Positions 2,694-35,556 are shown, counted from the first letter of the stretch. The stretch is 64,000 nt of DNA from an uncultured Planctomycetales bacterium (GCA_964455625.1 CAYVXZ010000001.1:8150-72149), one strand, 5' to 3'. The notes: generated by a model from the letters alone, not told the origin. Translations and numbers: made by a program.

Positions 2694-2904
2694 CGGTCCA
2701 TTCTAGCGGTTCCGGGAATCGGGTAAGGGGAATCGAGTCACACTCGGCGTCTCCCGACGCCTCGCGCGACCCCGGGTCGGCCGCCTCTCGGCGTCCTCCC
2801 GTTCGACTCCCATGCTCGCCGCCTCCCGGCGGCTTGACTCGTCGCGCGAAGCGTTGGCCAGGTGCAAGGCACGAGGCACGCCATGGTTCGGCAAGCTCAC
2901 CACG

Positions 2905-2975
2905 AGCGGGTGAGGGGAATCGAACCCCCATGGCCAGCTTGGAAGGCTGGAGCTCTGCCATTGAGCTACACCCGC
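2905..2975 (-). tRNA. tRNA-Gly (anticodon UCC)
   Basis: The reverse complement folds as a cloverleaf. The acceptor stem is GCGGGTG/CACCCGC. The D-arm is GCTCAATGGCAGAGC. The anticodon stem-loop is CCAGC-CTTCCAA-GCTGG. The T-arm is GGTTCGATTCC. The discriminator is U and CCA is not encoded. Confidence 0.9.
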
Positions 2976-9090: not shown

Positions 9091-9738
9091 TTGCCCGCGA
9101 CATCCCCGCCCCTTCCGAAACCCGGCCGGCCCCGCGATCCCACCCTGCCCGCCCGCCGCCGGGAGGAGATCCTCGAGGCCGCCCAGCGCGTCTTCGCCGA
9201 CCGCGGCTTCCACAAGACCGACGTCGGAGAGATCGCCGTGGATCTCGGTCTCGGCAAGGGGACCCTGTACCGGTACTTCCCGTCCAAGGAGGCGCTGTTC
9301 CTGGGCGCGGTGGACCGGGGCATGCGCCTCCTGAGGGAGGCGGTCGAGCGGGCGGAAGAGGGGGCGACGGATCCCCTCCAGCGCGTGTCCCGTGCGGCGC
9401 GCGCCTACCTGGCCTACTTCGACCGGAATCCCGCCCTGGTCGAACTCCTGCTCCAGGAGCGCTCGCATTTCAAGGCGCGCAAGAAGCCCACCTACTTTGC
9501 CCACCGCGACGCCAATCTCGGGCCCTGGCGGAAGACCTTCCGGAACCTCATCCGGGAGGGTCGGGTCCGGGACGTCCCCGTGGACCGCATCACCGACGTC
9601 ATCAGCGACCTCCTGTACGGAACGATCTTCACCAACTACTTCGCCGGACGCCGGAAGTCCTTCGAGGCCCAGGCACAGGACGTCCTCGACGTGCTCTTCC
9701 ACGGGATCCTGTCGCCGGGAGCAGGGCCGCCCGCATGA
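9091..9738 (+). CDS. TetR/AcrR family transcriptional regulator
   Basis: N-terminal TetR HTH ('ILEAAQRVFADRGFHKTDVGEIAVDLGLGKGTLYRYFPSKEALF'). It sits upstream of an efflux operon. Confidence 0.85.
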   Translation: MPATSPPLPKPGRPRDPTLPARRREEILEAAQRVFADRGFHKTDVGEIAVDLGLGKGTLYRYFPSKEALFLGAVDRGMRLLREAVERAEEGATDPLQRVSRAARAYLAYFDRNPALVELLLQERSHFKARKKPTYFAHRDANLGPWRKTFRNLIREGRVRDVPVDRITDVISDLLYGTIFTNYFAGRRKSFEAQAQDVLDVLFHGILSPGAGPPA

Positions 9739-11102
9739 CCCGGTTCCGTCGAGGCCTCCTTCTCGCGCTCCTATCCGCCTGTCCTGGCTGTGCGCCGCCC
9801 GGCGGAAACCCCGCCATCGTCCTTTCCCGTCCGGCCCCGGCGCCCTCCCCTCCTGCGGCCGCGGCGCCCGCCGCCCAGGGCCCGCTGACGCTGGAGGACT
9901 GCCTCCGCATGGCCGAGTCCCGCAGCCGCCTCATCGCCATCGCCGACCGGCGCGTCCTGATCGCCGACGACCGCCTGGGGGAGGACCTGGGCGCCGTGCT
10001 GCCCAAGCTGACGGCCGAGGGCCGGTACGACGGGCGCGACAACGACCGCGGGACGCGGCTCCCCACGGGAAGCTTCGTCGCGGGGGAACGGGAGACCACC
10101 TCCCTGCGGCTGGGGCTCGTGGTGCCGATCTACGATTTCGGACGTTCCTCCTCCCAACGCGACGCCGACCGCTTCCGGATCGACGCGGCACGCCATGACG
10201 CCAGGCACGTGCGCGGGGAGGTCGCCTTCGCGGTCAGCCAAGCCTATTTCCGCCTCCTGGAGGCACTGAAGATCCGGGACGTCGTCGAGGGGTCGATCCA
10301 GATCCTGGAGCGTCAGATCGAGACGGCCCGGGACTTCCTGAAGCAGGGTCTCGTGGCGCGCTCTGACGTGCTGACGGCCGAGGTGCAGATGGCCGAGCGC
10401 CGCCAGGACCTCGTCCGGTCGCGGAACAACATCGACCTCGCCCGGGCGACCTTGAACCGCCTCCTCGGGCTCGACGTCGAGCATCCGACCGAGGTGGTCG
10501 ACATTCTGGAAGCGCCCCCGTTCTCGGGAAGCTTCGGCCCCCTCCTGGAGCTCGCCCGGCAGCGGCGTTCCGACGTGGCGGCGTTGCGCGCCCAGCTCCA
10601 GGCCGTCCAGTTGGAGTACCGGTCCGTCAGCCGGGGCAACCTCCCCTCCCTCTTCGGCACGGCGGGCTACAACCGATCCTCGGACGACACTCTCCTCAAC
10701 CGGGACTGGAGCGACGCCGCCATCGTCATGCAGGTCCCCCTCTTCGACGGTTTCGTCAACCGCCACCGCACGGAGAGGACGGGCCGGGAGGCCGCCGAAG
10801 CGAAGGACCTCATCGAGAACCGCCTCGACGACCTTTCCCTGGAGGTGAAGCAGGCGTGCCTGCTGATCTCGGAGGCGGTGGAGCAGGTGCCTGTGGCGCG
10901 CAAAGGCGTCGCACTCGGCACCGAGAACCTCCGCGTGGTCCGCGACCAGTACGGGGAGGGGCTGGTGACGAGCGCCGACGTGCTGGCGGAGGAGGACCGG
11001 CTGAGCCGCGCTCGCACGAGCTACTTCCGCGCCCTCTATGAGAGCCACGTGGCCTACACGCGTCTGGTCCACGTGATCGCCGGTCCGCCGGCAGAAAGGT
11101 GA
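9735..11102 (+). CDS. TolC-family outer membrane efflux protein
   Basis: Lipoprotein-like signal ('LLSACPGC'). Two TolC-like repeats. The start overlaps the TetR stop. Confidence 0.75.
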   Translation: MTRFRRGLLLALLSACPGCAPPGGNPAIVLSRPAPAPSPPAAAAPAAQGPLTLEDCLRMAESRSRLIAIADRRVLIADDRLGEDLGAVLPKLTAEGRYDGRDNDRGTRLPTGSFVAGERETTSLRLGLVVPIYDFGRSSSQRDADRFRIDAARHDARHVRGEVAFAVSQAYFRLLEALKIRDVVEGSIQILERQIETARDFLKQGLVARSDVLTAEVQMAERRQDLVRSRNNIDLARATLNRLLGLDVEHPTEVVDILEAPPFSGSFGPLLELARQRRSDVAALRAQLQAVQLEYRSVSRGNLPSLFGTAGYNRSSDDTLLNRDWSDAAIVMQVPLFDGFVNRHRTERTGREAAEAKDLIENRLDDLSLEVKQACLLISEAVEQVPVARKGVALGTENLRVVRDQYGEGLVTSADVLAEEDRLSRARTSYFRALYESHVAYTRLVHVIAGPPAER

Positions 11103-12183
11103 GGCGACCCGTGGGGAAGCTATCGATCGTCCTTCTGTCGGCATTGCTGGCCGGGATCCTTGCCGCGGGAAAGGGGCCAGCCGCGGCGGAGGGGACCCCG
11201 GCCAATCCCGGGCCCGCGGCGGGCGGGACGGAGGCGCCGAAGGGCCGCTGGGCCGAGGCCCGACGGGACACGCTCCGCCGGTACGCCTCCGCCGTGGGCA
11301 ACTTCCAGGCCCGGCGGACCACCCAGGTCGGCTCGGGGGTATCCGGACGGGTCCTGGAGGTCCTCGTGGACGTGGGGGACGTCGTCCGGGCGGGCCAGGA
11401 GCTGGTGAAGCTCGAGCCGGCACTCTTCGAGATCGAGGTCGCCCAGCGCCGTGCGGACCTTGAGTCGGCCGGGGTCGTCCTGGCGGAGGCGGAACTCAAC
11501 CACACGCGCATGAAGAACCTCTGGGAGAAGCCCGACGGGACCGAGCCCTCCATTCCCCGGAAGCTCTACGACGACGCCCGTTCCCGCCGGGAGGGGGCCC
11601 AGTCCCGCCTTGCGCAATCGAAGGCGGCCCTGGACTGGGCGCTGGAGCGCCTCAAGGAGACCGTGGTGCGCGCGCCCTACGATTCGGTGGTCACCCGCCG
11701 CATGGTCGATCCCGGGGAGCCCGTGACCTCGCCCCCGCTCACGCACCTCCTGGAGATCCAGGAGGTGGGCATCCTCGAATTGGAGTACGCCCTGCCCCAG
11801 GAGATGCTGTCGCGCGTGCGGGAAGGAGCCCCCGTCACGTTCGAGGCGGAGGGGGCTTCCGGCGCGAAAGGCGAGGGAAAGGTCGACATCGTCTACCCGG
11901 TCGTGGACCCCGCCACGCGCTCCTTCCGGTGCCGCACCCTGGTGCAAAACGCCGATCGCTGCTTCCGTCCCGGCATGCTCGCCGCCGTGCGCATCCTGGA
12001 GCTGGAAGCGAAGGATGCGCTCCTGGTTCCCCGCTCTGCCCTGCGACAGGCCGCCTCGGGCTGGCAGGTGCAGGTCCTCTCCGGGAACGCGATCGCGGCG
12101 AGGACGGTCAAGGTGGGCCTGATGACGGACGACCAGGCCGAAGTCCTGGAAGGCCTGGCGCCCGGAGAGAAGGTGGTCCTGCC

Positions 12184-12187
<4 letters not shown>
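11099..12187 (+). CDS. RND efflux membrane fusion protein (HlyD/AcrA family)
   Basis: Signal/TM at the N-terminus. A coiled-coil hairpin plus barrel-sandwich motifs. It is translationally coupled to the flanking genes. Confidence 0.8.
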
Positions 12188-15285
<3,098 letters not shown>

Positions 15286-19928: not shown

Positions 19929-21158
19929 TTGGGTGCTTGCAACGAGGAGATGGGTATGACTGAAGCCACGCGCTCATATGGCGACCGTGCGGACCAGGTC
20001 CACCAGTTCTTCGAGAAGAAGCGAGAGTGGTCCAAGATCAAGGACAGGATAGTTGGGTCCTACATTTCCTGTTACCTGAAGACGGTTCAGCATCGTGGTC
20101 GTCCCATCATCATTGTGGATGCCTTTTGCGGCCCTGGGCGTTTCGGCGACGGTAATGATGGATCGCCAGTGATCATTTGTGACACGATCGCCAAGATGAA
20201 CGCCGGCGTTGGCATTGGGTGCTTGTTCGCCGATTCACATCAAAAACATCGTGACGAGCTTGAAGCTTGCCTGGCTGAACACATGAAAACCGGAATTGCA
20301 GGGAAGCCTCTGTCGGATTTCTCAGAGGCTCTTTCACAAGCATTAACAGTAGGTAGAGGCTCAACCTTGTTCTTCTACCTGGACCCATATGGCATCAAAG
20401 ATTTGGATTTCGAGGTCGTGAAACAAATCTACGAGCGGGACACCGCCCAAAGCACTGAGGTTCTGATTAATTTCAATTTCAAAGCCTTCATGAGAATGAG
20501 CGGGAACTGGTCCTACGCTGATTCAGTCGACGAAGTGGCCCGGAAGGTGAAGGAATCGAAAATCGAAAAAGTTAACAGCGTCATGGGCGGCGACTACTGG
20601 TTGGCAATCGTCACCAACCCAGCTCTGAACAAGATTCAGCGAGAAGACGCGGTAGTGGACGCGTATATGGGGCAAGTCAGAAAATACTTCAAGTACACCT
20701 ACTCGATTCCTGTGAAGGAAATGGATGAGGGTGATCGGGACGTTCCGGCTGACGACCTAGCAAAGTATCACCTGATTTTCGGCACGCGCAGTCGCAGAGC
20801 AGTTCTGTACATGAACGATGTGGCCGGCAACGCGTTGGAGCCGTACTTCAAACAGTTCAAAGACGGTCTCCTTTTCGAGATGACTCCGGAAAGGTACGCA
20901 GCAGCCTCGAGGGAGGCAGTGAAGGCTGAAATCCTGAAGGTGCTTGCCAGTGGTCCTATGAAAAGGAAAGAAATCTACGAAGCCGTGGTCCCGGGTTTTT
21001 TTCTGCACTACCGCTCAAAACATTACCGAGCCATGATTGACGAAATGGTCTTCAGTGAGGGACAGCTATTTGCCGATCCAAAGACGATGAAGCGAAAAAA
21101 CCAGCTTAACGAAACGACGCGCCTCGCGACGAAACCTTGGCCAGCTGGCCAGCGCTAA
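19929..21158 (+). CDS. three-Cys-motif partner protein TcmP-like
   Basis: About 400 aa. It lies directly upstream of, and is translationally coupled (TAATG) to, a Gp37/Gp68 three-Cys protein, which is the characteristic TcmP arrangement. Assignment is by context and length. Confidence 0.5.
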   Translation: MGACNEEMGMTEATRSYGDRADQVHQFFEKKREWSKIKDRIVGSYISCYLKTVQHRGRPIIIVDAFCGPGRFGDGNDGSPVIICDTIAKMNAGVGIGCLFADSHQKHRDELEACLAEHMKTGIAGKPLSDFSEALSQALTVGRGSTLFFYLDPYGIKDLDFEVVKQIYERDTAQSTEVLINFNFKAFMRMSGNWSYADSVDEVARKVKESKIEKVNSVMGGDYWLAIVTNPALNKIQREDAVVDAYMGQVRKYFKYTYSIPVKEMDEGDRDVPADDLAKYHLIFGTRSRRAVLYMNDVAGNALEPYFKQFKDGLLFEMTPERYAAASREAVKAEILKVLASGPMKRKEIYEAVVPGFFLHYRSKHYRAMIDEMVFSEGQLFADPKTMKRKNQLNETTRLATKPWPAGQR

Positions 21159-21883
21159 TGAGCGCCACGTCAACCATAGAGTGGACCAACGCAACCTGGA
21201 ATCCGGTCACAGGTTGCACAAAGATCAGTCCTGGGTGCAAGCATTGCTACGCTGAAGTTTTTGCGGAGCGTTGGCGAGGGATCTCCGGGCATCATTTCGA
21301 GCAGGGATTTGACCTCCGGCTTTGGTTTAAGCGGCTAGAGCTCCCGCTTACCTGGAAAACGCCGCGAACCATTTTCGTGAACAGCATGAGCGACCTCCTT
21401 CATGAGAAGGTGCCCACTTCATTTATTCGGAGGGTATTCCAGACCATGGAGCAGGCATCGTGGCACACGTTCCAGGTTCTGACCAAGCGCTCGGAAAGGC
21501 TGGCAGAACTGGCACCAACCCTAGACTGGCCATCCAATGTGTGGATGGGGGTGTCCATTGAAAGCGCTGATTATCTGTGGCGAGCCGATCACCTTCGTGA
21601 AGTGCCTGCTGCGGTGAGATTCTTGTCCTTGGAGCCTTTGCTGGGACCTCTGGGAGTCATAGATCTGACAGACATTGATTGGGTCATCGTGGGCGGGGAG
21701 AGCGGTCCTGGTGCTAGACCTATGGAGGCCGACTGGGTTAGGGACATCAGCAAGCAGTGCCGGAGAGAAAATGTCTCATTCTTCTTTAAGCAGTGGGGCG
21801 GCGTACAAAAGAAGCGGACAGGAAGGACTCTCGATGGGCGTACGTGGGATGGCATGCCAAAGGGTCATCTTCTGGGAGTCTGA
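21158..21883 (+). CDS. phage Gp37/Gp68 family (DUF5131) three-Cys-motif protein
   Basis: N-terminal 'IEWTNATWNPVTGCTKISPGCKHCYAE' carries the C-x6-C-x2-C motif typical of the family. ATG at 21158 overlaps the upstream stop. Confidence 0.7.
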   Translation: MSATSTIEWTNATWNPVTGCTKISPGCKHCYAEVFAERWRGISGHHFEQGFDLRLWFKRLELPLTWKTPRTIFVNSMSDLLHEKVPTSFIRRVFQTMEQASWHTFQVLTKRSERLAELAPTLDWPSNVWMGVSIESADYLWRADHLREVPAAVRFLSLEPLLGPLGVIDLTDIDWVIVGGESGPGARPMEADWVRDISKQCRRENVSFFFKQWGGVQKKRTGRTLDGRTWDGMPKGHLLGV

Positions 21884-23932: not shown

Positions 23933-24000
23933 AGGCTTTCTGGAAGCTCCGGCAGGCTTTCTCTCCCTCGGGAAACGGCCGGTCTCGGGTCGGAACTGCA

Positions 24001-24044
24001 CCAGCTTGGAAGGCTGGAGCTCTGCCATTGAGCTACACCCGCGA
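24001..24044. repeat. 44-bp direct repeat, copy 2 (5' fragment of tRNA-Gly; putative att site)
   Basis: Perfect identity to 2934-2977. The flanks diverge. Confidence 0.85.
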
Positions 24045-24123: not shown

Positions 24124-25551
24124 ATGGCACGGCTCCTCTTCCTCCAGAACCTCCAGTACGAGTACCTGGGCCCCATGTACATCGCGGCGAGCGTGCGCGC
24201 CCGGGGGCATGGATGCGAGCTCGCCTTCGGCCGGACCACGGAGGATTTCGCGCCGGTCATGGACCGGTTCCGGCCGGACGTGGTGGGCTTTTCGGTCATG
24301 ACGGGAAGCCACCGCTGGGCGGTGGGGGTCGCGCGCGACCTGAAGGCGCGCTACGGCGTCCGGACCCTCGTCGGCGGCGCGCATCCGACCTTCTTTCCCG
24401 ACTTCGTCAACGAGGAGGGGATCGACGGCCTCGTGCGCGGCGAGGGGGAGGAGGCATGCGTCGATCTTCTCGACCGCGTCGACCGGAACGCCGGCTGGGA
24501 AGGGATCGAGAACCTCGTCTGGAAGCGGGACGGCGCGGTCGAGCGGAACGACGTCCGGACGCTGCGGAAGGACCTTGACGATTACCCGTTTCCCGATCGC
24601 CGGCTCTACGATGCCCTCGAGGGACGCGTCGATCGCTCGGTCAGGACGCTCATCACCTCGCGCGGATGCCCCTTCCATTGCTCGTTCTGCTTCGAGGACG
24701 CGATGCGCGACCTCTACGCCGGCAAGGGAAAATACGTCCGGATCCGCCGGATCGAGCCGGTGATCGAGGAATGCCGGGAGCTCCGCGACCGGCACCATGT
24801 GAAAACGATCTACTTCGCTGACGACGTCTTCGGGATGAGCAAGCCGTGGCTCTACGAATTCATGGAGGTCTACCGGCGCGAGGTGGGGCTCCCCTTCATC
24901 TGCCTCGTCCGGGCGGATCTCGTGGCCTCCGACCCCGATTACGCCCGGAACCTGAAGGCAGGCGGATGCAAGTCGGTCTTCTTCGGCGTGGAGTCCGGAA
25001 ACGAGACCCTGCGGAACCGCGTCCTGGTGAAGCAGCTCACCGACGACCAGATCGTGCAGGGGGCGCGCTACCTCCACGAGGCGGGGATCCCGTTCCGGAC
25101 CTACAACATCGTGGGGCTACCGGACGAGACCATGAAGGACGCCTTCTCCACCGTGGAACTGAACATGCGGATCAAGGCGGACTACCCCTGGTGTTCGGTC
25201 TTCGCCCCCTATCCGGGGACGGCGCTCGCGCAGTACGCCCAGCAGCGCGGGTACCTCCCGCCGTCCTTCGACGTCGAGGAGATCGCCGGATCCTTCTTCA
25301 CCTCCTCCAACCTTGAAGGAGAGAACATCCGGGAAAAGCAGAACCTCCAGAAGTTCTTCCAGACCGCCGTCCGGTGGCCCTGGACCTGGCCGGTCATCAA
25401 GCGGCTGATCAGGCTTCCCTCCAACCGGCTTTTCGACGCCTGGTTCGGATGGGTCTATTTCCTCACGTACCTGAAAAGCGAGCAGAAATCGTTCTGGAAG
25501 ACGCTTCCGTTCGCCCTGCGGAACTGGCGCCACATCTTCGCCAAGGAGTGA
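24124..25551 (+). CDS. B12-binding domain-containing radical SAM protein (class B rSAM)
   Basis: The N-terminal Rossmann-like B12-binding region ('VVGFSVMTGSH...') is followed by the rSAM cluster motif 'CPFHCSFC'. Confidence 0.8.
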   Translation: MARLLFLQNLQYEYLGPMYIAASVRARGHGCELAFGRTTEDFAPVMDRFRPDVVGFSVMTGSHRWAVGVARDLKARYGVRTLVGGAHPTFFPDFVNEEGIDGLVRGEGEEACVDLLDRVDRNAGWEGIENLVWKRDGAVERNDVRTLRKDLDDYPFPDRRLYDALEGRVDRSVRTLITSRGCPFHCSFCFEDAMRDLYAGKGKYVRIRRIEPVIEECRELRDRHHVKTIYFADDVFGMSKPWLYEFMEVYRREVGLPFICLVRADLVASDPDYARNLKAGGCKSVFFGVESGNETLRNRVLVKQLTDDQIVQGARYLHEAGIPFRTYNIVGLPDETMKDAFSTVELNMRIKADYPWCSVFAPYPGTALAQYAQQRGYLPPSFDVEEIAGSFFTSSNLEGENIREKQNLQKFFQTAVRWPWTWPVIKRLIRLPSNRLFDAWFGWVYFLTYLKSEQKSFWKTLPFALRNWRHIFAKE

Positions 25552-26414
25552 GCGCCCCCGACCTGGATGCCGCCTGCCGCGCCTGCGGCGGCGGGTCGTT
25601 CCCCGTCCGGACGTTCGACCGCGACGGCGGCGTCCTCCTGCGGCGGTGCGCCGCCTGCCGCTCCGAATTCCTCCATCCCCAGCCGCCGGACGGGCGCCTC
25701 GCCGCCGAGTACGCCGACTACGGCGTGCGGCGGAAGGGAACCGCGCCCGGCGGGAAGACCCCGTACTTCAGGGATCTCCTCGCCGCGCTCGGCCTTCCGG
25801 CCGGCATCGGTTCGATCGCGGACCTCGGCGCCGCCGAGGGGGACGCCCTGCGCGCCGCGCGGGAGATCTGGCCCGGCGCACGACGCCTCGCCGTCGAGCC
25901 GCGCCCCGAAGGTCTCACGGGAACGGACTGCGAAACCGCCCGGACGTCCGTCGAGGAATGGCTCGCGGCGCCATCCGGCGAACGCTTCGACCTGGTCCTG
26001 GCCCTTGACGTCCTCGAGCACCTGCGGGACCCCGGCGAGGCCGTCACGCGTCTCGCGCGCGACCGGATCGCCCCGGGCGGGTTCCTCGTCGCCACCTTCC
26101 CGAACGGGACGTCGCTCTCCCGGCGCTGGATGGGACGTCTCTGGGTCCAGTGGCGGATCGAACACCTGCATTACCTCTCGGCCGCGGGCGTCCTGGCCCT
26201 GGCGCGGAACGCGTCGCTCGACACCGGTTTTCTCGCGCCCCACACGAAGCGGCTCCCGGTCTCCTATCTCCTGGCAGTGGGAAGCCGGTTCGGGCCGGCG
26301 CCGGTCCGTCCCCTGGTCCGCTTCCTCGCGCGGACGACGCCGGGACTCCTCGCCCGCCGCTCCGTCGGCCTTCCGCTCGGGGAATGGATCTGGGTCGCCC
26401 GGAGGCGCGCGTGA
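25546..26414 (+). CDS. class I SAM-dependent methyltransferase with N-terminal Cys4 zinc-ribbon
   Basis: GTG at 25546 overlaps the upstream stop. 'CRACGGG...CAACRS' is a zinc ribbon. 'IADLGAAEGD' is SAM-binding motif I. 'LVLALDVLEHLRDP' is motif II. Confidence 0.7.
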
Positions 26415-27079
26415 CCGGCGGGCGCCCCGAGTCGGCCGCCGCCTGGAGCGCCCTCTACGCGGCGGGGTACGAGGGCTCTCCCCTGCCAGCACTGCTCCTT
26501 GCCCTGCCCGTCCCTCCGGGCACGCGCGTCCTCGACATCGGATGCGGCCAGGGACGGCACATGACGCGCTGGGAGGGCCGCGCTGTCGGAATCGATTTCT
26601 CCATGACCGCGCTCGCAGATGCCGACGCGCGGGGACAGCGCGCCGCCTGCGCCCACGCCGGGCGGCTCCCGTTCCGCCCTGGCAGCTTCGGCCTTGCCTA
26701 CTCCCTGGGGGTGATCGAGCACCTGGCCGACACCGAGGGCGCGATCCGCGAATCCTTCACGGTCCTCGCCCCCGGCGGCTGGGCGTACCACTCGGTCCCC
26801 CACACGCGCTCCGTCTGGACCTGGTGCGTGCGCCCGCTCAAGAAAGCCCTCGGGAAGTTCCCGATCGGACGCGAGGCCTCCTTTTCCGTCCGGCGCATGC
26901 GGCGGATGTTCGAGGCGGCCGGCTTCACCGACATCGCGCACCGCGTGATGCCGTTCGCCGCCTACGACTGCCTCGGCGCGCGATGGCCCCTTCCGCTTCT
27001 CTACCGTGCCGAGGATTTCCTGAACGCCCGATTCGGGAACGTCGGCTTCTTCCTGCACATGTGGGGCCGGAAGCCTTAG
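26411..27079 (+). CDS. class I SAM-dependent methyltransferase (type 11-like)
   Basis: GTG at 26411 overlaps the upstream stop. 'RVLDIGCGQGRH' is motif I. 'GLAYSLGVIEHLAD' is motif II. Confidence 0.7.
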   Translation: MTGGRPESAAAWSALYAAGYEGSPLPALLLALPVPPGTRVLDIGCGQGRHMTRWEGRAVGIDFSMTALADADARGQRAACAHAGRLPFRPGSFGLAYSLGVIEHLADTEGAIRESFTVLAPGGWAYHSVPHTRSVWTWCVRPLKKALGKFPIGREASFSVRRMRRMFEAAGFTDIAHRVMPFAAYDCLGARWPLPLLYRAEDFLNARFGNVGFFLHMWGRKP

Positions 27080-28269
27080 CGGGGAGCCGTTGTCGATTCC
27101 GAAAGCATCTGCGATGCCGCCGAAAACGCCTCCTCCGGCCCGATCTCTTTCATGCAGATATTGTTCCCGTTGCAGGCGGCGATCTTCGCGCTGTAGGTGT
27201 TGAGGCACGGGCTGCAGAACACTCCCCTGTACAGGACACGGTGGCCAGGTTCCAGGGGACCGTACAGGGCCGGCGTCTCCGGGCCGAAGAGCGACAGCGT
27301 CCGTGCACCCGAGGCGATCGCGATCTGCAACGGACCGCTGTCGTTGGTGACCACGAGATCCATCCGGCGGAAGAGCCCCGTAAGCTCCTCGACCGTCAGG
27401 CGCCCCGCGGCGTCCACGGCGCGGACGGACGCCGGCAGCTCCCGCGCGAACGCCTCCACATAGTCCCGGTCGACACCGCCGCCAACCAGGAAAAACGTCC
27501 CGCCGCGCGCCGCCTGGAGCCGTTCCATGAGGACCCGGAAATGCGGGGCGGGCCAGCGCCGCTCCCAGGAAAGCTCGCTCACGTTGATGTTGACGGCGAT
27601 CCAGGGGCGCGGCCGGTCCGCGCCCGGCTCCCCGGCGAAACGCGCGGCCGCGGCATCCGCCGCGGCGCCGGGAACGAGCGCGCGGAGCGACAGGTCCGCG
27701 ACGATGATCCCCAGCGGGCGCAGGAGGTGTCCGTAGATCTCGCGGATGTGGCGCCGCGTGTTGTAGGGGACGGAGGCGGTCACCAGGCTCTCGAACCAGA
27801 AGGCCGGATGGAAGAATCCGATCCGCCGCGCCGCGCCGGAAAGGTACGCGATCACCACCGTGTAGCGGGCGTAGAACTCGAGATTCAGCACGGTGTCGAA
27901 CCGCTCGCGGCGGATGCGGATCAGGGCGCGCAGGGTCGAAAGGAGAAAGCGCCCGATTCCCCCGACGTCGATCCCGATCACGTCGTCGATCTCCGGGATC
28001 AGTCGGCAGACGGCGCGGTTGGCGGCGAAGGTAAGGAAGACGATCCGGACGCCGGGGCGTTCGCGCTTCAAGGCCAGGACCGCGGGGGTCGTGTTGACGA
28101 GGCTCCCCATCCCGAAGCACTTGATGAAGAGGACCCGCCGGACAGGCGGCGCCGCGCGCGCCGGCAGGAGCCGCGCGAGGAACGCGCGGGCCCTTTCCCA
28201 CAGGAAAAGCGCCACGCAGAACGGGGGGCCCAGGATCTTGTCGGCCCGCACCAGCGCGCGCGTTCTCAT
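27076..28269 (-). CDS. glycosyltransferase family 9 (ADP-heptose:LPS heptosyltransferase-like)
   Basis: 'RVLFIKCFGMGSLVNTTPAVLALK' at the N-terminus. 'GGGVDRDYVEAFA' and 'VVTNDSGPLQIAIASGARTLSLFGP' are GT9 signatures. Confidence 0.8.
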   Translation of the reverse strand: MRTRALVRADKILGPPFCVALFLWERARAFLARLLPARAAPPVRRVLFIKCFGMGSLVNTTPAVLALKRERPGVRIVFLTFAANRAVCRLIPEIDDVIGIDVGGIGRFLLSTLRALIRIRRERFDTVLNLEFYARYTVVIAYLSGAARRIGFFHPAFWFESLVTASVPYNTRRHIREIYGHLLRPLGIIVADLSLRALVPGAAADAAAARFAGEPGADRPRPWIAVNINVSELSWERRWPAPHFRVLMERLQAARGGTFFLVGGGVDRDYVEAFARELPASVRAVDAAGRLTVEELTGLFRRMDLVVTNDSGPLQIAIASGARTLSLFGPETPALYGPLEPGHRVLYRGVFCSPCLNTYSAKIAACNGNNICMKEIGPEEAFSAASQMLSESTTAPR

Positions 28270-28341
28270 GGATCGGCCACAGCATAGCAGCCCGCGCGAA
28301 ATTGTGGGGTGCGCGGGGCGCGGCTATGATCGCGTATCCCC

Positions 28342-30033
28342 ATGTCCAGGACGTCCATCCTTTCCCCGCGGCTCCTCGTGGCCGTCCTCATGCTCCTTTT
28401 CACGGGCGCCGGGCTCGTCGGAAGCGGCTGGGGGATCCCCGGACGCGACCGTGCGGAGATCGTGGGCGCGACGCCCGGCCCCTTTCTCGACAGCGTGAAG
28501 GCGCGCTGCGGAGAGGATCTCGAGACCCGCCGGGAAGGAGGGTTCGGCCGCGCGATCCCGGTCGCCCCGGACGACCACGCCGGGATCCTCGCCCGGATCT
28601 GCCGCCGCTTCCTCCTCTACACCCATCACCCGGACGAGGGGCGGGTCTTCTGGGCGTTCTCGAACATCCGGCCGTCGGACCTCGCGTTCAACCCGGGGAC
28701 CTTCGCCTACGGAGGGCTTTTCTTCTATTCCCTGGGAGCCTGGTACTGGATCGGGGCCAAGATCGGACTCTGCGCGCTCGTCCCGGACGCGGGGTTCTAT
28801 CTCGACCATCCAGAGGAGATGGGCCGTCTCGTCCAGCTGGGGCGGATCGGAATCATGCTGGCCGGGGCGCTCGCCATCCCGGTCCTCTTCCGGATCGGAA
28901 GCCTTCTCTGGGGCGCCCGGGGAGGAATGCTTCTCGCGCTCCTGTGGGCGGCCCATCCCCTGTGCGCCATCGGCGGGCGCGAGCTGAAGCCGTACCTTCC
29001 CGCCGCGTTCCTGGTGTCGCTTTCCCTCCTCCACGCCCTGCGCGCCGTGCGCGGGGGCGGCACCCGGAGCGCGCTCGCGGGTGCGGCCTTCGCGGGGCTC
29101 GCGGCCGGCGCCTCCCCGGCCAATTACCCGGTCGCGATCCTCCCGATCCTCGCGCTCTGGACGGCCCCCGCGCCCCGGACGAGGCGCGTCACCGGAACGG
29201 TCCTCGCCGGACTCGTCTCGGGTCTTGTCTTCCTCCTCTGCAACCCCTTTCTCCTCGTGTCGCTCGAGACGTTCCTCAAGGAGGCGGCCGCCATCGATGC
29301 CGTCTGCGGGACATTTCCCGCGGATCTGCCGTCCTATGGCGCGCTCCTCTTCCGGTCCATCCCGCTCGGGCTGCACCCTTTCCTTGTCCCGTTCCTCGCG
29401 CTCGGCGCATGGATGGCGTCCAGGCGGCCCGGAGGGCTCCTTTGCCCGGCGGCGCTCGGGTTCCTGCTTCTCCACTTCGCCGTCTTCACGGGAGAGCAGG
29501 TGCGCTACATGGCCATGGTCCGTTTCCTCTTTCCCTACCTGCCGATCGCGCTGGTGCTCGTCGTGGAAGGGATGTTCGCGGTCGGGCACCGGTTTCCCCG
29601 CGCGGGACGCGTCGCGACCGCGACGGCGGCCCTCGCTCTTGCCGCGACCGCGGCGACCCTCGTCGGACTCCACCGGGAAGACGCGGGCCCCTCCTCGACG
29701 CGTCTTGCGGCCGGTGCCTGGATCCGGGAGAACGTCCCGCCGGGAACGATCGAGGTCCCGACCGGCGTGGCCCCCTGGGACTTCCCGCCGCTCCCGTTTC
29801 CGGCCTACGCCGTCGGCGACATGACCTGGGGAACTCCGCATCACATCGCGACCACCGGCCGGGAATACCTCGTCCGCGTCGAAGCGAACGAGGCGTTCTC
29901 GCCGGTGGACCCCGCGTTCGAGCAGGTCCGGGAATGGGATGTCCGCTCCGGCCGGCTCCTCTCCCCCCTCCTCCCCCACCACCTGTTCTGGGCGCAATCA
30001 ACCGTGCGCCTCTACCGGCGGAAGGGCCCGTGA
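28342..30033 (+). CDS. polytopic membrane protein, GT-C fold (ArnT/PMT-like glycosyltransferase family 39/83)
   Basis: About 12 hydrophobic segments. An N-terminal loop with a D/E-rich motif. Glycosyltransferase gene neighbourhood. Confidence 0.55.
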   Translation: MSRTSILSPRLLVAVLMLLFTGAGLVGSGWGIPGRDRAEIVGATPGPFLDSVKARCGEDLETRREGGFGRAIPVAPDDHAGILARICRRFLLYTHHPDEGRVFWAFSNIRPSDLAFNPGTFAYGGLFFYSLGAWYWIGAKIGLCALVPDAGFYLDHPEEMGRLVQLGRIGIMLAGALAIPVLFRIGSLLWGARGGMLLALLWAAHPLCAIGGRELKPYLPAAFLVSLSLLHALRAVRGGGTRSALAGAAFAGLAAGASPANYPVAILPILALWTAPAPRTRRVTGTVLAGLVSGLVFLLCNPFLLVSLETFLKEAAAIDAVCGTFPADLPSYGALLFRSIPLGLHPFLVPFLALGAWMASRRPGGLLCPAALGFLLLHFAVFTGEQVRYMAMVRFLFPYLPIALVLVVEGMFAVGHRFPRAGRVATATAALALAATAATLVGLHREDAGPSSTRLAAGAWIRENVPPGTIEVPTGVAPWDFPPLPFPAYAVGDMTWGTPHHIATTGREYLVRVEANEAFSPVDPAFEQVREWDVRSGRLLSPLLPHHLFWAQSTVRLYRRKGP

Positions 30034-31172
30034 GCGCCCGTCCCCGGCTCCTCTTCCTGTCGCGCGCCGTGAACCCCCACGGCGGGATCCCGCGCGCGGC
30101 GTTCGAGACCCTGAAGGCGCTCGAGGGATCCGCGGATCTCGCCCTCGCGGCGATCGATTGCGACGCGGAGGCGGCGGGTTTCTCGTCCTGGATCCCCGTC
30201 CCGAAAGGGCGCGCGCGTTCGCATTTCGGGGAACTCGCGGGGTTTCTCCGCCGGACGCGCGCCGTCCCGCGGGACGGATTCGGCCTCTCGATCGGCGTCC
30301 TGGGAGAATGCCTCGATTCCGACGTCGCCTGGGCGCACTTCTGCTATCCGGCCTGGCGCGACGTGGCGCTCCCGGTCACCCCGTCCGGGCGCGCCCGCTG
30401 GGCGCGGCGCCTCAATCCCGCAGGGCTTCTCCAATGGCACGCGGAGCGCCGCCACGCGGCGCGCGCCCGCGCCGTCGTCGCCGTCTCGGAAGGGCTCCGG
30501 CAGGAACTGGTCCGGCATTACGGCCTGGCGCCCGGATCCGTCCGCGTGATCGAGAACGGCGTCGACGCGGGGGCGTTCACGCCCGCGGGGCGCGCGGTGG
30601 ACCGAGCGGCGCTCGCCCGGAAGTTCGGCCTGCCCGGGGACGCGCCCTGGATCCTTTTCGTCGCGAGCTATGACCTCGCCTGGAAGGGGCTCGCGCCCGC
30701 GATGGAAGGGCTTGCCCGGGCGGGCGGGACGGCGCGGCTTCTCGTCGCCGGCGGGCAGGACCCGCTCGGGCATTTCCGGCGCCTGGCGGAGACGCTCGGG
30801 ATCGCCGCGCGCGTTCATTGGCTGGGTCGCCAGGACGGCATGCAGGCGCTCTACCGGTCCTGCGACGTCTACCTGGCGCCTTCCGCCTGGGAGGCGATGT
30901 CGCTCGCGGCCCTCGAGGCGGCGGCGTCCGCCCTGCCGATCCTCGCAACACGCGTGAGCGGGATGACGGAGATCCTGGCGGACGGCGAGAACGGCTTTTT
31001 CGTGGCGCGCGACGCGGACGATATCGGGCGGCGCGTCGCGGAGCTGGCCGGGTCGCCGGAGCTGCGCGCCCGGATGGGGGCGGCGTCGCGGGAGCGCGCG
31101 GCGCGGTTCACCTGGAAGGCCGCCGCCGGGAAATGGCTCGCGCTCGCCGAAGAGCTTGCCGCGACCCGCTGA
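30030..31172 (+). CDS. glycosyltransferase family 4
   Basis: GTG at 30030 overlaps the upstream stop. The C-terminal GT4 motif is 'EAMSLAALEAAASALPILATRVSGMTEILADGENGF'. The track ORF 28302-31172 is a frame run-on. Confidence 0.75.
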   Translation: MSARPRLLFLSRAVNPHGGIPRAAFETLKALEGSADLALAAIDCDAEAAGFSSWIPVPKGRARSHFGELAGFLRRTRAVPRDGFGLSIGVLGECLDSDVAWAHFCYPAWRDVALPVTPSGRARWARRLNPAGLLQWHAERRHAARARAVVAVSEGLRQELVRHYGLAPGSVRVIENGVDAGAFTPAGRAVDRAALARKFGLPGDAPWILFVASYDLAWKGLAPAMEGLARAGGTARLLVAGGQDPLGHFRRLAETLGIAARVHWLGRQDGMQALYRSCDVYLAPSAWEAMSLAALEAAASALPILATRVSGMTEILADGENGFFVARDADDIGRRVAELAGSPELRARMGAASRERAARFTWKAAAGKWLALAEELAATR

Positions 31173-31176
31173 CCGT

Positions 31177-32319
31177 CTACTTGCCGGCCGCGAGGCGGAT
31201 GTCCCCGCTCGCCGTCCGGAGCGTCACCCGGGGACCGCCGCCGCCGACCGCGCCGGAAAGCCCCTGTCCGGAAACCCCTCCCGGCCCGACGGCGACGGAA
31301 AAGTCCGTCTCGATCCGGCCGAACCCGGTCGCCGCGTCGACCGTCAGGGCCGCGCCGGCCGGGAGCCCCAGCGTCACGTCGCCGAAGGAAGTGGCAAGCG
31401 CCCAGGGGACCTCGGGGGCCCGCGCGGCGACAACCCGGACCGATCCGGAGCCGGACCGGAGAGACAGCGTTCCGAACGCCCCTTCCGCCTCGATATCGCC
31501 GGAACCGGTCTCCCCCTCAAGACTTCCCGTGATCCCGCGCGCGACAAGACCCCCCGAGGCGAGCCGCACCGTCACGGCCCCGGAGACCTCCTTGAGGCCG
31601 CATTTTCCGGACCCGCCCGCCAGGTCGATGCGGGCGGCGGCGACCCCCTCGAGCGCGATCCGGCCCGACGCGGCGTTCGCCGAGACCCGCTCCGCCCTGA
31701 CCGAGACGATCCCGATCTCCCCGAAGGCGGTCGCGGCGGAAACCTCTTTCCCCTCGATGTTCCCGATCCGGACCTCCCCCGAACCGGACTGGAGCGAGAG
31801 ATCCCCGCGGATCCCGTCGCACCGGATGTCGCCGAAGCCGCTCCGGACCGCCACCGAGACGCCCGCGGGGACCCGGACCGTCCAGTCGATCCGCTCGCGG
31901 ACGTGATACGCCTTTCCCTTCTCCAGGGGGGCCGGGTATTCCGCCAGGATCCGGACCCCGTTCTCGCATCGTTCAACGACGACGCGCGTCGCGGACGCGC
32001 GGGCGTCCGCTTCCGCGCGGGTCTTCCCGGAAGCGGTGATCGCGGCGGAAAGCGAGGCTGTCCCGTCGGTCGAGGCCGCGACGACAATGTCGCCGGCGCG
32101 CCCCTCGAGAAACAGCGTCTCGCCGGCGGCGACCGTCACGGGGACTTCCTCGTTCCGGGACGCCTTCCGGAAGGATCCGGAGGCCTCCTCGTCCTCCCCG
32201 CCGCTCCCAGACTTCCACTCGAACGTCATCCCCCCCGCCTGGCACCCGGCCAGGACCGGAAGGAGAAGCACGACGCCGGAGATCCGTTTGACGCGCATGG
32301 TTTCCCCCTTACCGTTCAA
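31177..32319 (-). CDS. DUF4097-like beta-repeat lipoprotein (putative adhesin family)
   Basis: Signal plus lipobox 'VLAGCQ'. Repeated G/S/V-rich beta strands with 'GSG(D/E)(V/I)' repeats. Confidence 0.5.
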   Translation of the reverse strand: MNGKGETMRVKRISGVVLLLPVLAGCQAGGMTFEWKSGSGGEDEEASGSFRKASRNEEVPVTVAAGETLFLEGRAGDIVVAASTDGTASLSAAITASGKTRAEADARASATRVVVERCENGVRILAEYPAPLEKGKAYHVRERIDWTVRVPAGVSVAVRSGFGDIRCDGIRGDLSLQSGSGEVRIGNIEGKEVSAATAFGEIGIVSVRAERVSANAASGRIALEGVAAARIDLAGGSGKCGLKEVSGAVTVRLASGGLVARGITGSLEGETGSGDIEAEGAFGTLSLRSGSGSVRVVAARAPEVPWALATSFGDVTLGLPAGAALTVDAATGFGRIETDFSVAVGPGGVSGQGLSGAVGGGGPRVTLRTASGDIRLAAGK

Positions 32320-33490
32320 GCCGGCCGCGCCCGGACGCCGCCGCGGCCGCCACCTTGTGGTGGAACCAGTGTGGGCCGGCCTCGGCCTTCGGGGAGAACC
32401 GCCCCGGCGTCCCGCCGGAGGCGGCCATCCCCTGCAGGACCTGCGCCATCGCGTCCACGTCCTCGTCGTCCACCTGACGCGAGAGCCAGAGATCCTCGCG
32501 GCGCGCGTATTTCTGCGGATCGAGGACCCAGTGATACCACCGGAACAGGGTCCGCGCGGGATCCCCGGGGACCGGCTCGTAGACGTTCACCGAGAGCCCC
32601 CACGGGTAGAAATTCAGGGTCAGGTTCGGAAAGACGAACCACCAGAGGGCGAAGACGCGCCGCTCCGGATGCGCCGCGTCCCGGAAACGCGCCGGGAGGA
32701 TCTCCGGATCGAAGCCGTGCGCGGGATCCCGGGCGAACGCCCACTGGAGGGCGCAGTCCCCGAAAAGCTCCGTCCGGTAGGTCTCCATCAGAAGGGCGTC
32801 CGCGAGCCCTCCGGGTTTCCGGTGGATGTACGGGATGTGCAGGCTGTCCATGTAGTTCCAGGCGTGCTGCTTCCAGTTGCCGGAAAGGACCCGGCTTTCT
32901 CCTTCCACGGGGACGCGTTTCAGGCGGTCGAGGGGAAACCGTTCCAGGGAACCGGCCACCGGGGAAAACGCCTTCGCGAACGGCCGGTCCGGCTTTCCCG
33001 CGGCGGCGAAGAAAGAATCCCCCCACTCGGCGACCGGACAGGCCCGCAGGTGGTCCTCCGGCCCCGGAAAACCCGGAATCCCCTCGAACCCCGCCTGCGC
33101 GAGGAAGCGCCCGGCGCAGTCGAACTGCCGCCCGTGCTGGGGACAGGTGACGCGCCGGTCCCGCTCCGGTCCCCGCACGAGGGGGTGCCAGGCATGCGTG
33201 CAGGCGTTCGGAAAGAGGCGCAGCGTCCCGTCCCAGTCCCGCTGGAGGAAACAGGGGCGCCCCGCGAGCGTCACCGGGACGCGCGACCCGCGCCGCCGCA
33301 CCAGATCCGCCAGGCTCCGGGGGTCGGCGCGAAGCTCCGCCGCCTCCCGCTGGGGGACGAAAAGCCAAGACTTCGCGAAGACCGTCTCCAGCTCGCGCGC
33401 CAGGAACGCCGGATCGAGAAAGGCGGAAGGCGGAAGGATGCGCGCCCTCGCGATGTCGGTTCCCCTTCCTTTCCGCGACTTGGCCATCCC
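32309..33490 (-). CDS. Rieske [2Fe-2S] domain non-haem oxygenase alpha-subunit-like protein
   Basis: Rieske motif 'CTHAWHPL...CPQHGRQF' (CxH...CxxH). The C-terminal part resembles a ring-hydroxylating catalytic domain. Start Met taken at 'MAKSRKG'. Confidence 0.7.
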   Translation of the reverse strand, partial: GMAKSRKGRGTDIARARILPPSAFLDPAFLARELETVFAKSWLFVPQREAAELRADPRSLADLVRRRGSRVPVTLAGRPCFLQRDWDGTLRLFPNACTHAWHPLVRGPERDRRVTCPQHGRQFDCAGRFLAQAGFEGIPGFPGPEDHLRACPVAEWGDSFFAAAGKPDRPFAKAFSPVAGSLERFPLDRLKRVPVEGESRVLSGNWKQHAWNYMDSLHIPYIHRKPGGLADALLMETYRTELFGDCALQWAFARDPAHGFDPEILPARFRDAAHPERRVFALWWFVFPNLTLNFYPWGLSVNVYEPVPGDPARTLFRWYHWVLDPQKYARREDLWLSRQVDDEDVDAMAQVLQGMAASGGTPGRFSPKAEAGPHWFHHKVAAAAASGRGRLER

Positions 33491-33559
33491 GCCATCGTCC
33501 CCCAAGCGTCCTCCGCCATCAACCCCGGAAACGTTTGCGGAAGGCGGTCCTCGCCGGGA

Positions 33560-34532
33560 GGATGCCGGGATGGGACGCGCCGTCGCGCTGGATGTCGCGG
33601 GAATCGGGTCCATGGTCGTCGACCGGATCTTCAGGGCGCCGCGCCTCATCGGCCCCGAGGAAAAAATCCTGCTGGCGCGTCACACGGACGGCTCGGTCGT
33701 CCGGAAGCTCCACGGCGGCGTCACGCTGAACCATCTCGCCTGGGCGCGGGTGACGGGCGCCCGGACGGGCGTCTTCGGAAGCCTCCCGGACGACGCCGAC
33801 GGACGGTTCCTCCGGGCCGGCATGCGGTCGCTCGGTATCGCCGCGCACCTCTCGCCGAAAGGGTCCACCACCGCCGCCTCCCTTGTCTTCGTGGCCGACG
33901 ACGGCGCGCGGTGCATCTACATGGACCGGGGCGCGACGGGCGGGACCCGCCCGGCGGATATCCGCGCCCACCGGGCGTTCATCCGGCGCGCGCGTTTCGT
34001 CTCGACCGAGATCTCGCAGTTGCCTCTCGACACCGTCGCCGCGGTCCTCGCGCTCGCGCGCGAGGCCGCGGGAACGACGGTCCTTGATGTGGACATTCCT
34101 CCGCAGGATGCCGTCAGGACCCTGGGGAGCCGCCGGGATCTCGAACGCGCGCTCGCGCTTGCCGACATCCTGAAGCCGTCCCGGGCGGCGGCCCGGGAAC
34201 TCGCCGGCGGCGCCCCTCCCCTCCTGGCCGCGCGGCGGCTCCGCGCGCGATACGGATCCCGCGCCGTCGCCATCACGGACGGCGAACGGGGGTGCGCGAT
34301 CGACGCCGAGGGGTTTTCGGGGGCGCTCCCCGCCTTCCGCGTGAAGGCGGTCGATACCACCGGATGCGGGGATGCCTTTCTGGGGGGGCTTCTTGCGGCG
34401 CGCGCCCGGGGCCTCTCCTGGCCCGAGGCGGCGCGCCTCGCGAACGCCTGTGGCGCCGCCTGCGCCCTGCAGACGGGCGCCTTTCCCGCTCCCGGCACCC
34501 GCCGGACGGTCGAACGCCTCCTCGCGTACTGA
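33560..34532 (+). CDS. PfkB-family carbohydrate kinase
   Basis: 'DTTGCGDAFLGG' is the PfkB signature 2. N-terminal 'VAGIGSMVVD'. ATG at 33560. The upstream part of the track ORF 32877-34532 is antisense run-on. Confidence 0.8.
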
Positions 34533-34584: not shown

Positions 34585-34657
34585 GCTACCGTAGCTCAGC
34601 CGGCAGAGCACGTCCTTGGTAAGGACGAGGTCAAGGGTTCGAATCCCTTCGGTAGCT
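34585..34657 (+). tRNA. tRNA-Thr (anticodon GGU)
   Basis: Cloverleaf fold. Acceptor stem GCTACCG/CGGTAGC. Anticodon stem-loop CGTCC-TTGGTAA-GGACG. T-arm AAGGGTTCGAATCCCTT. Confidence 0.85.
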
Positions 34658-34747
34658 CCGTTTCGCATATCGGGGGCCGTCTTCGGGAGCGGCCATCAGC
34701 GCCACCAGCGCAACCGGGAAAAGCGTTATCCGTTATCGAAGAGGGCT

Positions 34748-35444: not shown

Positions 35445-35556
35445 CCCCGGCGACGACCTACTTTCGCAGTTGACCCACTATCATCGGCCCGCAGGGCTTA
35501 ACGACCGTGTTCGGAATGGGAACGGGTGTGGCCCCTACGGTATGGTCGCCGGGAAA
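35445..35556 (-). rRNA. rrf: 5S ribosomal RNA (orphan copy, no adjacent 23S/16S)
   Basis: The reverse complement is 'UCCCGGCGACCAUACCGUAGGGGCCACACCCGUUCCCAUUCCGAACACGGUCGUUAAGCCCUGCGGGCCGAUGAUAGUGGGUCAACUGCGAAAGUAGGUCGUCGCCGGGG'. It aligns to bacterial 5S along its length (…CCCAU.CCGAAC…, …GCCGAUG.UAGUG…, …GCGA.AGUAGG…). The ends are complementary and form helix I. Confidence 0.85.

Follow-up and report, generated by a model that had tools for sequence, protein, structure and literature searches.

What would a cell make with a cobalamin-type radical S-adenosylmethionine (SAM) enzyme, two SAM methyltransferases and three glycosyltransferases encoded side by side? The question is raised by positions 24124-31172 of a 64-kb stretch of DNA from an uncultured Planctomycetales bacterium (GCA_964455625.1 CAYVXZ010000001.1:8150-72149); we refer to the whole stretch, which has ~70% GC, as the window, and all positions count from its first letter. 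A first-pass annotation, made from the sequence alone, had read these genes as a pathway for a methylated glycan or glycolipid, perhaps related to lipopolysaccharide (LPS) cores or to hopanoids, and had remarked that the cluster is not a textbook one. We conclude, with a probability of roughly one half, that the locus is an instance of a module, widespread and so far uncharacterised, that makes and tailors an envelope glycoconjugate. The core of this module would consist of a Ser-variant glycosyltransferase of family GT9, a class-I SAM methyltransferase (here the zinc-ribbon protein MT1), a class-B radical SAM enzyme (rSAM) and a transferase with a GT-C fold. The remark about textbooks was well founded: none of rSAM, GT9 and GT-C reaches an NCBIfam cutoff, and we found no description in the literature of a combined rSAM-heptosyltransferase module.

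Gene layout and recurrence of the grouping

All six genes are present with the predicted domains (Pfam), and their coordinates were reproduced when genes were called independently on an identical Logan contig. On the plus strand, the class-B enzyme rSAM (24124-25551; 475 aa; B12-binding and Radical_SAM) is followed by two class-I SAM methyltransferases, MT1 (25548-26414; 288 aa; Methyltransf_23, with an N-terminal Cys4 zinc ribbon) and MT2 (26411-27079; 222 aa; Methyltransf_11). Beyond them lie a heptosyltransferase-like glycosyltransferase of GT-B fold, GT9 (27076-28269, minus strand; 397 aa; Glyco_transf_9), a polytopic membrane glycosyltransferase, GT-C (28342-30033, plus strand; 563 aa; recognised by a sub-cutoff PMT_2 match and by fold matches), and a second GT-B glycosyltransferase, GT4 (30030-31172, plus strand; 380 aa; Glycos_transf_1 and Glyco_transf_4). 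These domains and folds bear out the first-pass assignments, including the zinc ribbon on one of the methyltransferases. The first of the GTGA start/stop overlaps that had been described lies at 25548-25551, two bases away from the reported 25546; the second joins the MT1 stop to the MT2 start at 26411-26414, as claimed, and a third couples the GT-C stop to the GT4 start at 30030-30033. The order given for GT9, GT-C and GT4 after the rSAM-methyltransferase chain is also correct, but the minus-strand position of GT9 had been missed. GT9 overlaps the end of the convergent MT2 by 4 nt (27076-27079) and, on its other side, is separated from the divergent GT-C by 72 bp (28270-28341), so the locus comprises three transcription units (rSAM-MT1-MT2 forward, GT9 reverse, GT-C-GT4 forward) rather than one chain. 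The 72-bp gap is presumed to be a shared promoter region for GT9 and GT-C; no sigma-70 consensus was found in it.

Our analysis of the grouping used 80 rSAM loci with 10-kb flanks, in which open reading frames (ORFs) were clustered and annotated and all six frames were rescanned with hidden Markov models (HMMs) of the clusters. The main count set comprises 30 loci, drawn from other phyla, with an rSAM at least 53% identical and flanks of at least 4 kb. Within 10 kb of rSAM, 27 of these 30 loci have a GT9 gene, 24 have a SAM methyltransferase gene and 21 have a GT-C gene (GT87 or PMT_2), with all three present together in 19; at least one further rSAM, assigned by ORF cluster, is found in 24/30. 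Assuming that a genome has a few GT9 genes, we estimate that GT9 would co-occur by chance in ~1-2% of cases. Over the full set of loci, rSAM and the GT9 gene closest to it share a strand in 49/51 cases; the median gap is ~1 kb, and the gap is <100 bp in 16 cases; the window, L040 and L081 are exceptions in having a convergent GT9. The set of rSAM, GT9, methyltransferase and GT-C recurs in at least eight phyla, and the triad of rSAM, zinc-ribbon methyltransferase and GT9 is also found in a 40%-identity sister group (L056, L060, L062, L065 and L066). In several Planctomycetota loci, the place of GT-C is taken by YfhO or DUF2079 proteins, which we take to be GT-C-like. This recurrence, together with the fusion of GT9 to a methyltransferase in other genomes, upholds the view that the genes form a functional unit for a modified glycan or glycolipid.

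In six Flavobacteriaceae loci, the genes for GmhB, an HldD-like epimerase, HldE and GmhA come directly upstream of those for GT9, rSAM2 (a second rSAM family in related loci), PMT_2 and GT2 where present, GT87 and rSAM, in that order. This direct connection of the ADP-heptose pathway to the orthologous GT9 supports a heptose-type sugar. Accessory genes in related loci encode NodU-like carbamoyltransferases, GT2s, SPASM rSAMs and an unannotated multi-pass membrane protein. Among the Bacteroidota loci (L005-L052, for example L017:1-21428), the flavobacterial versions are much larger, with 3-6 class-B-like rSAM paralogues, a SPASM rSAM and 2-3 methyltransferases. Their multi-pass membrane protein, which has no Pfam or NCBIfam match, may be a flippase. 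A NodU-like carbamoyltransferase or a PRK07208-type FAD oxidoreductase is encoded in some of them as well, and two conserved proteins, cluster 11 (~380 aa) and cluster 12 (~300 aa, with a nucleotidyltransferase-looking motif), likewise match neither Pfam nor NCBIfam.

The zinc ribbon of MT1 (C10-x2-C13...C34-x2-C37) keeps its four Cys residues in 14/15 family members, and the MT1 family adjoins rSAM or GT9 in Planctomycetota, Elusimicrobiota, Omnitrophota and others. MT2 has a single named NCBIfam match, to the DVU_1556 family, and a weak one (56.6 bits, cutoff 155); MT2 is retained in an 87%-identical relative (L087), and a 47%-identical homologue lies within a glycan cluster in L083. We searched 1.84 billion representative proteins for relatives of GT9, and examined the top 150 for fusions and for individual residue columns. 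Three of these (P0327, P0357 and P0379) are complete fusions of GT9 with a zinc-ribbon methyltransferase, with scores of 320-357 bits against the model for GT9 and 244-315 bits against that for the methyltransferase. P0379 has no rSAM in its vicinity and is oriented divergently from a 459-aa polytopic membrane protein, and L089 has a GT9-methyltransferase fusion divergent from a polytopic membrane protein; P0327 adjoins a different rSAM, and P0357 (L093:6433-10250) is directly downstream of a HerA-like ATPase (DUF87/HerA_C), without an rSAM or a membrane protein. Given the contexts of the three fusions, GT9 and the methyltransferase look like the core of the module, often beside a membrane transferase, with the class-B rSAM as a frequent add-on. 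As a separate observation, the surroundings of P0357 include an SMC/AAA_15 ATPase and phage portal-like genes, a context that resembles conflict or defence loci rather than a glycan cluster.

On the membrane side, GT-C scores 24.7 bits to Pfam PMT_2, just under the cutoff of 26.1, and a search of PDB sequences with GT-C gave nothing useful. All 40 of the top 40 Foldseek PDB matches to its AlphaFold2 model (pLDDT 75.9) are GT-C enzymes (STT3/AglB/PglB, ArnT, AftA, ALG9/12, Emb and PMT; TM 0.37-0.47), and an acidic motif in the first periplasmic loop, D98-E99, is invariant among homologues. The family is rare: we found nine homologues, and 28%-identical ones are near rSAM in Elusimicrobia loci L038, L043 and L032. 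We also considered the possibility that the window GT-C is orthologous to the GT87 or PMT_2 proteins of other loci, and rejected it, HMM and hhalign comparisons not being significant. GT4 is above the cutoff for Pfam Glycos_transf_1 (95.1 bits) and Glyco_transf_4 (53.3 bits), and reaches no NCBIfam equivalog cutoff; it also matches the Pfam 'GT4-conflict' model at 42 bits.

Chemistry of rSAM and acceptor of GT9

rSAM matches Pfam B12-binding (PF02310; 65 bits, cutoff 32.1) and Radical_SAM (79.4 bits, cutoff 29.5). Its CxxxCxxC motif (C182/C186/C189) is invariant in 21 sequences, and the SxM...GG (S57-x-M59...G84-G85) and GGAHPTFF motifs are also invariant. The best matches to its AlphaFold2 model (pLDDT 85.8) are class-B rSAM structures, with the barrel fold matched: MgmA is first (E 1.2e-19, TM 0.65-0.73) and AprD4 second, and the matches also include TsrM, CysS, OxsB and TokK (TM ~0.6-0.7), at 14-22% identity to solved structures in the fold search (16-22% for class-B enzymes). 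The nearest PDB sequences are all remote, from AprD4 (the best, at 76.6 bits) through MgmA, OxsB, TokK and CysS to TsrM (20.6 bits). AprD4, an example of a related fold that is able to work without B12, aligns to the rSAM core alone (residues 150-389) and not to the B12-like domain. The N-terminal domain of rSAM aligns with the B12-binding enzymes MgmA, OxsB and TokK; this alignment and the invariant SxM...GG and GGAHPTFF motifs support the prediction that rSAM binds cobalamin. No cobalamin riboswitch, cobalamin gene or further rSAM paralogue was found within the window, in contrast to the 2-6 rSAMs of Bacteroidota loci. The C-terminal helices of rSAM (residues 402-472), checked as a possible membrane anchor, have moderate hydrophobic-moment values.

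Family models do not assign rSAM a function. All 18 NCBIfam matches score 24-98 bits against cutoffs of 251-775, the best being HpnJ (97.6/577.6), PhpK (95.3/600), ApyD (94.6/750), BchE (86.7/481) and HpnR (64.5/650), and rSAM is below every cutoff for PhpK, BchE, TsrM, the ladderane rSAM, BzaD, MgmA, KedN5 and the RiPP C-methylases. The hopanoid link drawn in the first-pass annotation fails on these same HpnJ and HpnR scores, with no match to HpnP at all; hopanoid genes (shc, hpn) are absent from the window and from the recurrent neighbours of the 80 loci, and the Flavobacteriia, which are among the carriers, are not known as hopanoid producers. rSAM is equally distant from methylases (PhpK, MgmA, TokK, CysS) and from non-methylases (HpnJ, BchE, AprD4, OxsB). 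C-methylation is the commonest class-B chemistry, and C-methylation of an unactivated carbon by rSAM is plausible, although unproven and one possibility among several.

It is possible, at well short of even odds, that the module is as we describe but that its rSAM is not a methylase, catalysing instead a radical rearrangement, dehydration, epimerisation or ring contraction/cyclisation of the sugar, with all methyl groups coming from MT1 and MT2. HpnJ, for which non-methylating chemistry has been proposed, is the best NCBIfam partial match of rSAM and also of rSAM2 (130.8 bits), BchE and AprD4 are matched as well, and AprD4, a sugar 1,2-diol dehydratase, is both the best PDB sequence match and the second-best fold match; non-methylating chemistry has been shown for OxsB and AprD4. 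Dedicated SAM methyltransferases are present in 24/30 loci, such that rSAM is not needed to explain methylation. Nonetheless, the scores to non-methylases are far below cutoffs and are no better than those to methylases, PhpK being nearly level with HpnJ and MgmA being the best fold match; the alignment with AprD4 leaves the B12-like domain uncovered, and most characterised class-B enzymes are methyltransferases.

The conservation of rSAM bears on its substrate. The family has >1193 database relatives, and 517 of 185,579 species-representative genomes encode one. Cultured carriers include Tenacibaculum xiamenense, Aurantibacter aestuarii, Spongiimicrobium salis and Aquimarina algiphila. Homologues with 55-65% identity are found in Bacteroidota (Flavobacteriales, Cytophagales), Ignavibacteria, Calditrichota, Elusimicrobiota, Planctomycetota and Armatimonadota, and also in Syntrophia-type Desulfobacterota and one Pseudomonadota metagenome-assembled genome (MAG). 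The identity distribution has three peaks, corresponding to orthologues (55-65%), the sister group (35-45%) and paralogues (15-30%). Across phyla, the median pairwise identity is 63% for rSAM orthologues, 31% for the methyltransferase and 24% for the partner GT9; because rSAM is so much more conserved than its partners, we infer that its substrate may be small and invariant (for example, a monosaccharide linked to a nucleotide or a lipid) and not a glycan that differs between lineages. Two longer database entries (P0072 and P0076) appeared to be rSAM fusion proteins, and were rejected as mis-called upstream starts.

GT9 departs from the LPS heptosyltransferases at a catalytic residue. It matches Pfam Glyco_transf_9 (PF01075; 73.1 bits, cutoff 22) and is below every NCBIfam cutoff (HepIII 79.3/170.2, HepII 65/134.6, HepI 54.5/185.3). 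In HMMER alignments, its Ser56 is opposite Asp13 of E. coli WaaC and the Asp of the G-D motif in the GT9 structure 3TOV. WaaC Asp13 is implicated by mutagenesis as the catalytic base, and has been described as strictly conserved (bioRxiv 10.1101/2021.06.16.448588). The Asp13 column reads S46/T2/N1 in the 49 rSAM-linked GT9s and S133/T7/N5 in the top 150 GT9 representatives, i.e. S, T or N in 145/150; the sole canonical G-D protein among the 150 is a GT4-GT9-GT9 fusion. The subfamily as a whole comprises 779 representatives at E<=1e-30. Two other residues are kept in 49/49 sequences, namely K50, which is equivalent to Lys7, and the donor-site residue D310 in N-D-S-G-P, which aligns with WaaC D261. 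The subfamily also conserves E131, R237 and a C-terminal C-x-P-C...C...C (Cys4) motif, and its N-terminal extension of ~45 residues has a hydrophobic helix and a conserved Asp, D10 (48/49).

The LPS-core acceptor suggested in the first-pass annotation is doubtful, on account of the missing Asp13 and of the neighbours: no LPS core or lipid A gene (waaA, lpx, kds) is recurrent among the 112 unclassified neighbours of rSAM loci. The same evidence leads to a second alternative, about as probable as the first, that the product is not of LPS-core type at all but a protein O- or N-glycan, a capsule or exopolysaccharide, or a wall polymer, with GT-C acting as an oligosaccharyl- or glycosyltransferase. 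Among the GT-C fold matches, oligosaccharyltransferases (STT3, AglB) rank first and ArnT and PMT next, although the modest TM values do not discriminate between GT-C subfamilies. A 38%-identical GT-C homologue clusters with Wzy_C, DegT aminotransferases, an acyltransferase, a sulfotransferase and three PMT_2 genes, and distant rSAM relatives are found, beside GT2, epimerase and SPASM rSAM genes, in archaea, which have no LPS. Against this alternative, the bacterial carriers of rSAM all belong to diderm phyla, and characterised GT9 enzymes work on LPS inner cores.

Several observations weigh against our proposal that the locus is a copy of a glycoconjugate module. Sequence and fold fail to place rSAM among methylating or non-methylating class-B enzymes, and the occurrence of GT9-methyltransferase fusions with no class-B rSAM neighbour means that rSAM may be an optional tailoring step. 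Lacking the catalytic Asp of WaaC, GT9 may differ from LPS heptosyltransferases in activity and acceptor, and the His that ends the donor-site motif N-D-S-G-P-x-H in 48/49 subfamily members is replaced in the window protein by Gln315, a change that could alter or weaken GT9 activity in this lineage. GT9 is predicted to be in a separate transcription unit here, no ADP-heptose genes are beside the window cluster, and the PfkB kinase at 33570-34532 scores as ribokinase-like rather than as HldE. Lastly, most other loci have GT-C families to which neither GT-C nor GT4 of the window is orthologous.

Two further alternatives fare much worse. A secondary-metabolite cluster, making either a heptose small molecule similar to septacidin or hygromycin B, or an aminoglycoside-type glycoside methylated in the manner of GenK, is very improbable. 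Class-B rSAM enzymes do methylate sugar carbons in aminoglycoside pathways. ADP-heptose also feeds septacidin biosynthesis, according to one report (PMC9978623). However, no NRPS, PKS, aminocyclitol or nucleoside-tailoring gene is present in the window or the loci, the GT-C transferases and the membrane proteins that may be flippase-like argue for an envelope role, and the distribution extends phylum-wide through MAG lineages that are not known to make metabolites of this kind. An incidental adjacency of unrelated housekeeping and envelope genes, packed beside a mobile island, has hardly any credence left and is effectively already refuted for rSAM, MT1 and GT9: the opposite strand of GT9, the three separate transcription units and the different GT-C and GT4 families at most other loci fit it, but the co-localisation is conserved over phyla, GT9-methyltransferase fusions exist, gene order is identical in 60-87%-identical relatives, one of them island-free, and the three start/stop overlaps amount to translational coupling.

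Island boundary and neighbouring genes

The cluster starts 82 nt past a displaced 44-nt copy of the 5' half of a tRNA-Gly gene. The intact tRNA-Gly(TCC) is at 2904-2975 (minus strand) and the partial copy is at 23974-24042 (minus strand), such that a 44-nt perfect repeat brackets ~21 kb. The displaced copy, which scores 32.8 bits as a tRNA (Rfam), marks the end of a ~21-kb mobile region with an integrase, a primase-polymerase and a low-GC phage-like block. The bracketed region contains a prim-pol/AAA_25 gene (4325-6241), the integrase gene (6536-7780), a TetR-OEP-AcrB efflux operon of 70% GC (9091-15285) and the phage-like block of 52-56% GC (15.7-23.9 kb), which includes a DUF5131 gene at 21137-21883; this mixed GC suggests a composite or tandem island. 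Duplication of a tRNA 5' half is uncommon for island integration, the 3' end being usual.

We considered the possibility that the cluster was acquired with the island, and ruled it out. The cluster is native, because GC content at third codon positions (GC3) is 0.87-0.89 in every cluster gene, matching host genes, and because L087 carries the same operon without the island, with the order rSAM-MT-MT-GT9 (GT9 on the minus strand) and a racemase gene upstream. A second relative, L084, whose GT-C is 60% identical, keeps the divergent arrangement of GT9 (minus strand) and GT-C, the GT-C-GT4 pair, and the DUF4097 and Rieske genes (both minus strand) that come next. In the window, this last pair encodes a DUF4097/LiaG-like protein and a Rieske/Ring_hydroxyl_A oxygenase at 31177-33505 (minus strand), after GT4. 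The two genes do not recur beside rSAM in other phyla and are therefore not counted in the module. As to the host, named relatives of NusA belong to Planctomycetota/Phycisphaerae and are 50-56% identical, so the source is probably a sparsely sampled lineage with affinity to Planctomycetota.

A second envelope-glycan block occupies 54743-63256. It begins with a GFO/IDH/MocA oxidoreductase gene and continues with genes for an 831-aa PMT/PMT_2 GT-C enzyme (56076-58571), an NAD-dependent epimerase/dehydratase (59311-60624), a GT4 (60634-61806) and a GT2 (62135-63256, minus strand). Its pairing of GT2 with GT-C looks to be of the Arn/Gtr type, and is separate from the rSAM cluster. A lone 5S rRNA gene (35445-35553, minus strand; 83 bits) lies near tRNA-Thr (34585-34659, plus strand); 23S and 16S rRNA have no match anywhere in the window, pointing to an unlinked arrangement of rRNA genes.

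Known systems and a possible pathway

The module resembles four kinds of known system in parts and belongs to none of them. Like WaaC, WaaF and WaaQ (CAZy GT9), its GT9 has a GT-B fold, a Glyco_transf_9 domain, equivalents of the Lys7 and donor-site Asp residues (K50 and D310) and, in the Flavobacteriaceae loci, a link to ADP-heptose biosynthesis genes. Unlike them, it has Ser for Asp13, the N-terminal extension and sub-cutoff HepI/II/III scores, and is partnered with rSAM, a methyltransferase (to which it is sometimes fused) and GT-C rather than with waa genes. The module shares with HpnI-HpnK-HpnJ the combination of a glycosyltransferase and a class-B-like rSAM thought to remodel a membrane-bound sugar, HpnJ being the top NCBIfam partial match for both window rSAM and rSAM2; by contrast, the two module rSAMs, at 97.6 and 130.8 bits, fall far below the HpnJ cutoff of 577.6, and shc/hpn genes are absent from the loci. 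The order of a B12-binding Rossmann domain followed by an rSAM barrel is that of GenK, GenD1, MgmA, TokK, CysS and PhpK. The module differs from GenK, GenD1 and the other class-B methylases in that its context is an envelope glycan rather than an antibiotic or cofactor pathway, and in that methylation is a prediction.

The ArnC-ArnD-ArnT, GtrA-GtrB-GtrV and CsbB-YfhO systems also co-encode a cytoplasmic glycosyltransferase, tailoring and a GT-C protein (PMT_2/GT87/YfhO/DUF2079). In the Arn pathway, tailoring takes place on a lipid-linked sugar. The cytoplasmic enzyme of the module is a GT-B GT9 rather than a GT2, however, and its tailoring enzyme is a radical SAM protein. There is no GT2 gene in the window cluster, the nearest being that at 62135-63256 beside a different PMT_2 gene, and no GT2-like ORF was detected in 11/21 module loci with GT-C; the likeness is functional only, because the GT2 donor enzyme is absent from these loci. 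No GtrA or ArnE/F flippase was identified in module loci.

For this organism, we infer a donor sugar, an acceptor, an order of steps and an rSAM chemistry as follows. At the cytoplasmic face of the inner membrane, GT9 would transfer a heptose-type sugar from an ADP-sugar donor to a membrane-bound acceptor. rSAM would modify this sugar, or the activated form that precedes it, by radical chemistry, with C-methylation of an unactivated carbon as the likeliest reaction; MT1 and MT2 would add O- or N-methyl groups, and GT4 one more sugar. After export, GT-C would complete the transfer or extend the chain on the periplasmic side.

A more specific and rather improbable version is that the Asp-less GT9 is a new polyprenyl-phosphate glycosyltransferase, that rSAM and the methyltransferase remodel the lipid-linked heptose, and that GT-C delivers it to the envelope. 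GT9 would load heptose from ADP-heptose onto undecaprenyl phosphate, and since a phosphate acceptor needs no general base, the change from Asp to Ser would be explained. rSAM and the sometimes fused methyltransferase would then remodel one invariant lipid-linked monosaccharide, which would explain why rSAM is 63% identical across phyla and GT9 24%, and a lineage-variable GT-C would deliver the C-branched or rearranged heptose to lineage-specific envelope acceptors. We leave this version open because the general base has been lost and a local GT2 is often absent. If true, it would amount to an Arn-like pathway that relies on a GT-B enzyme together with radical chemistry.

Whatever the order of steps in the proposed envelope-glycoconjugate module, a GT9 subfamily without the supposedly strictly conserved catalytic Asp implies a different acceptor or a different mechanism, in a family whose LPS heptosyltransferases are antibiotic-adjuvant targets. 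Class-B rSAM enzymes catalyse some of the hardest reactions in biology, and most of their families have no known substrate. The rSAM family is unusually well defined in this respect, with a relative in 517 of 185,579 species genomes, being ~63% identical over at least eight phyla and consistently linked to GT9, a methyltransferase and GT-C. Its presence in cultivable marine flavobacteria could open a route to a new envelope sugar modification.

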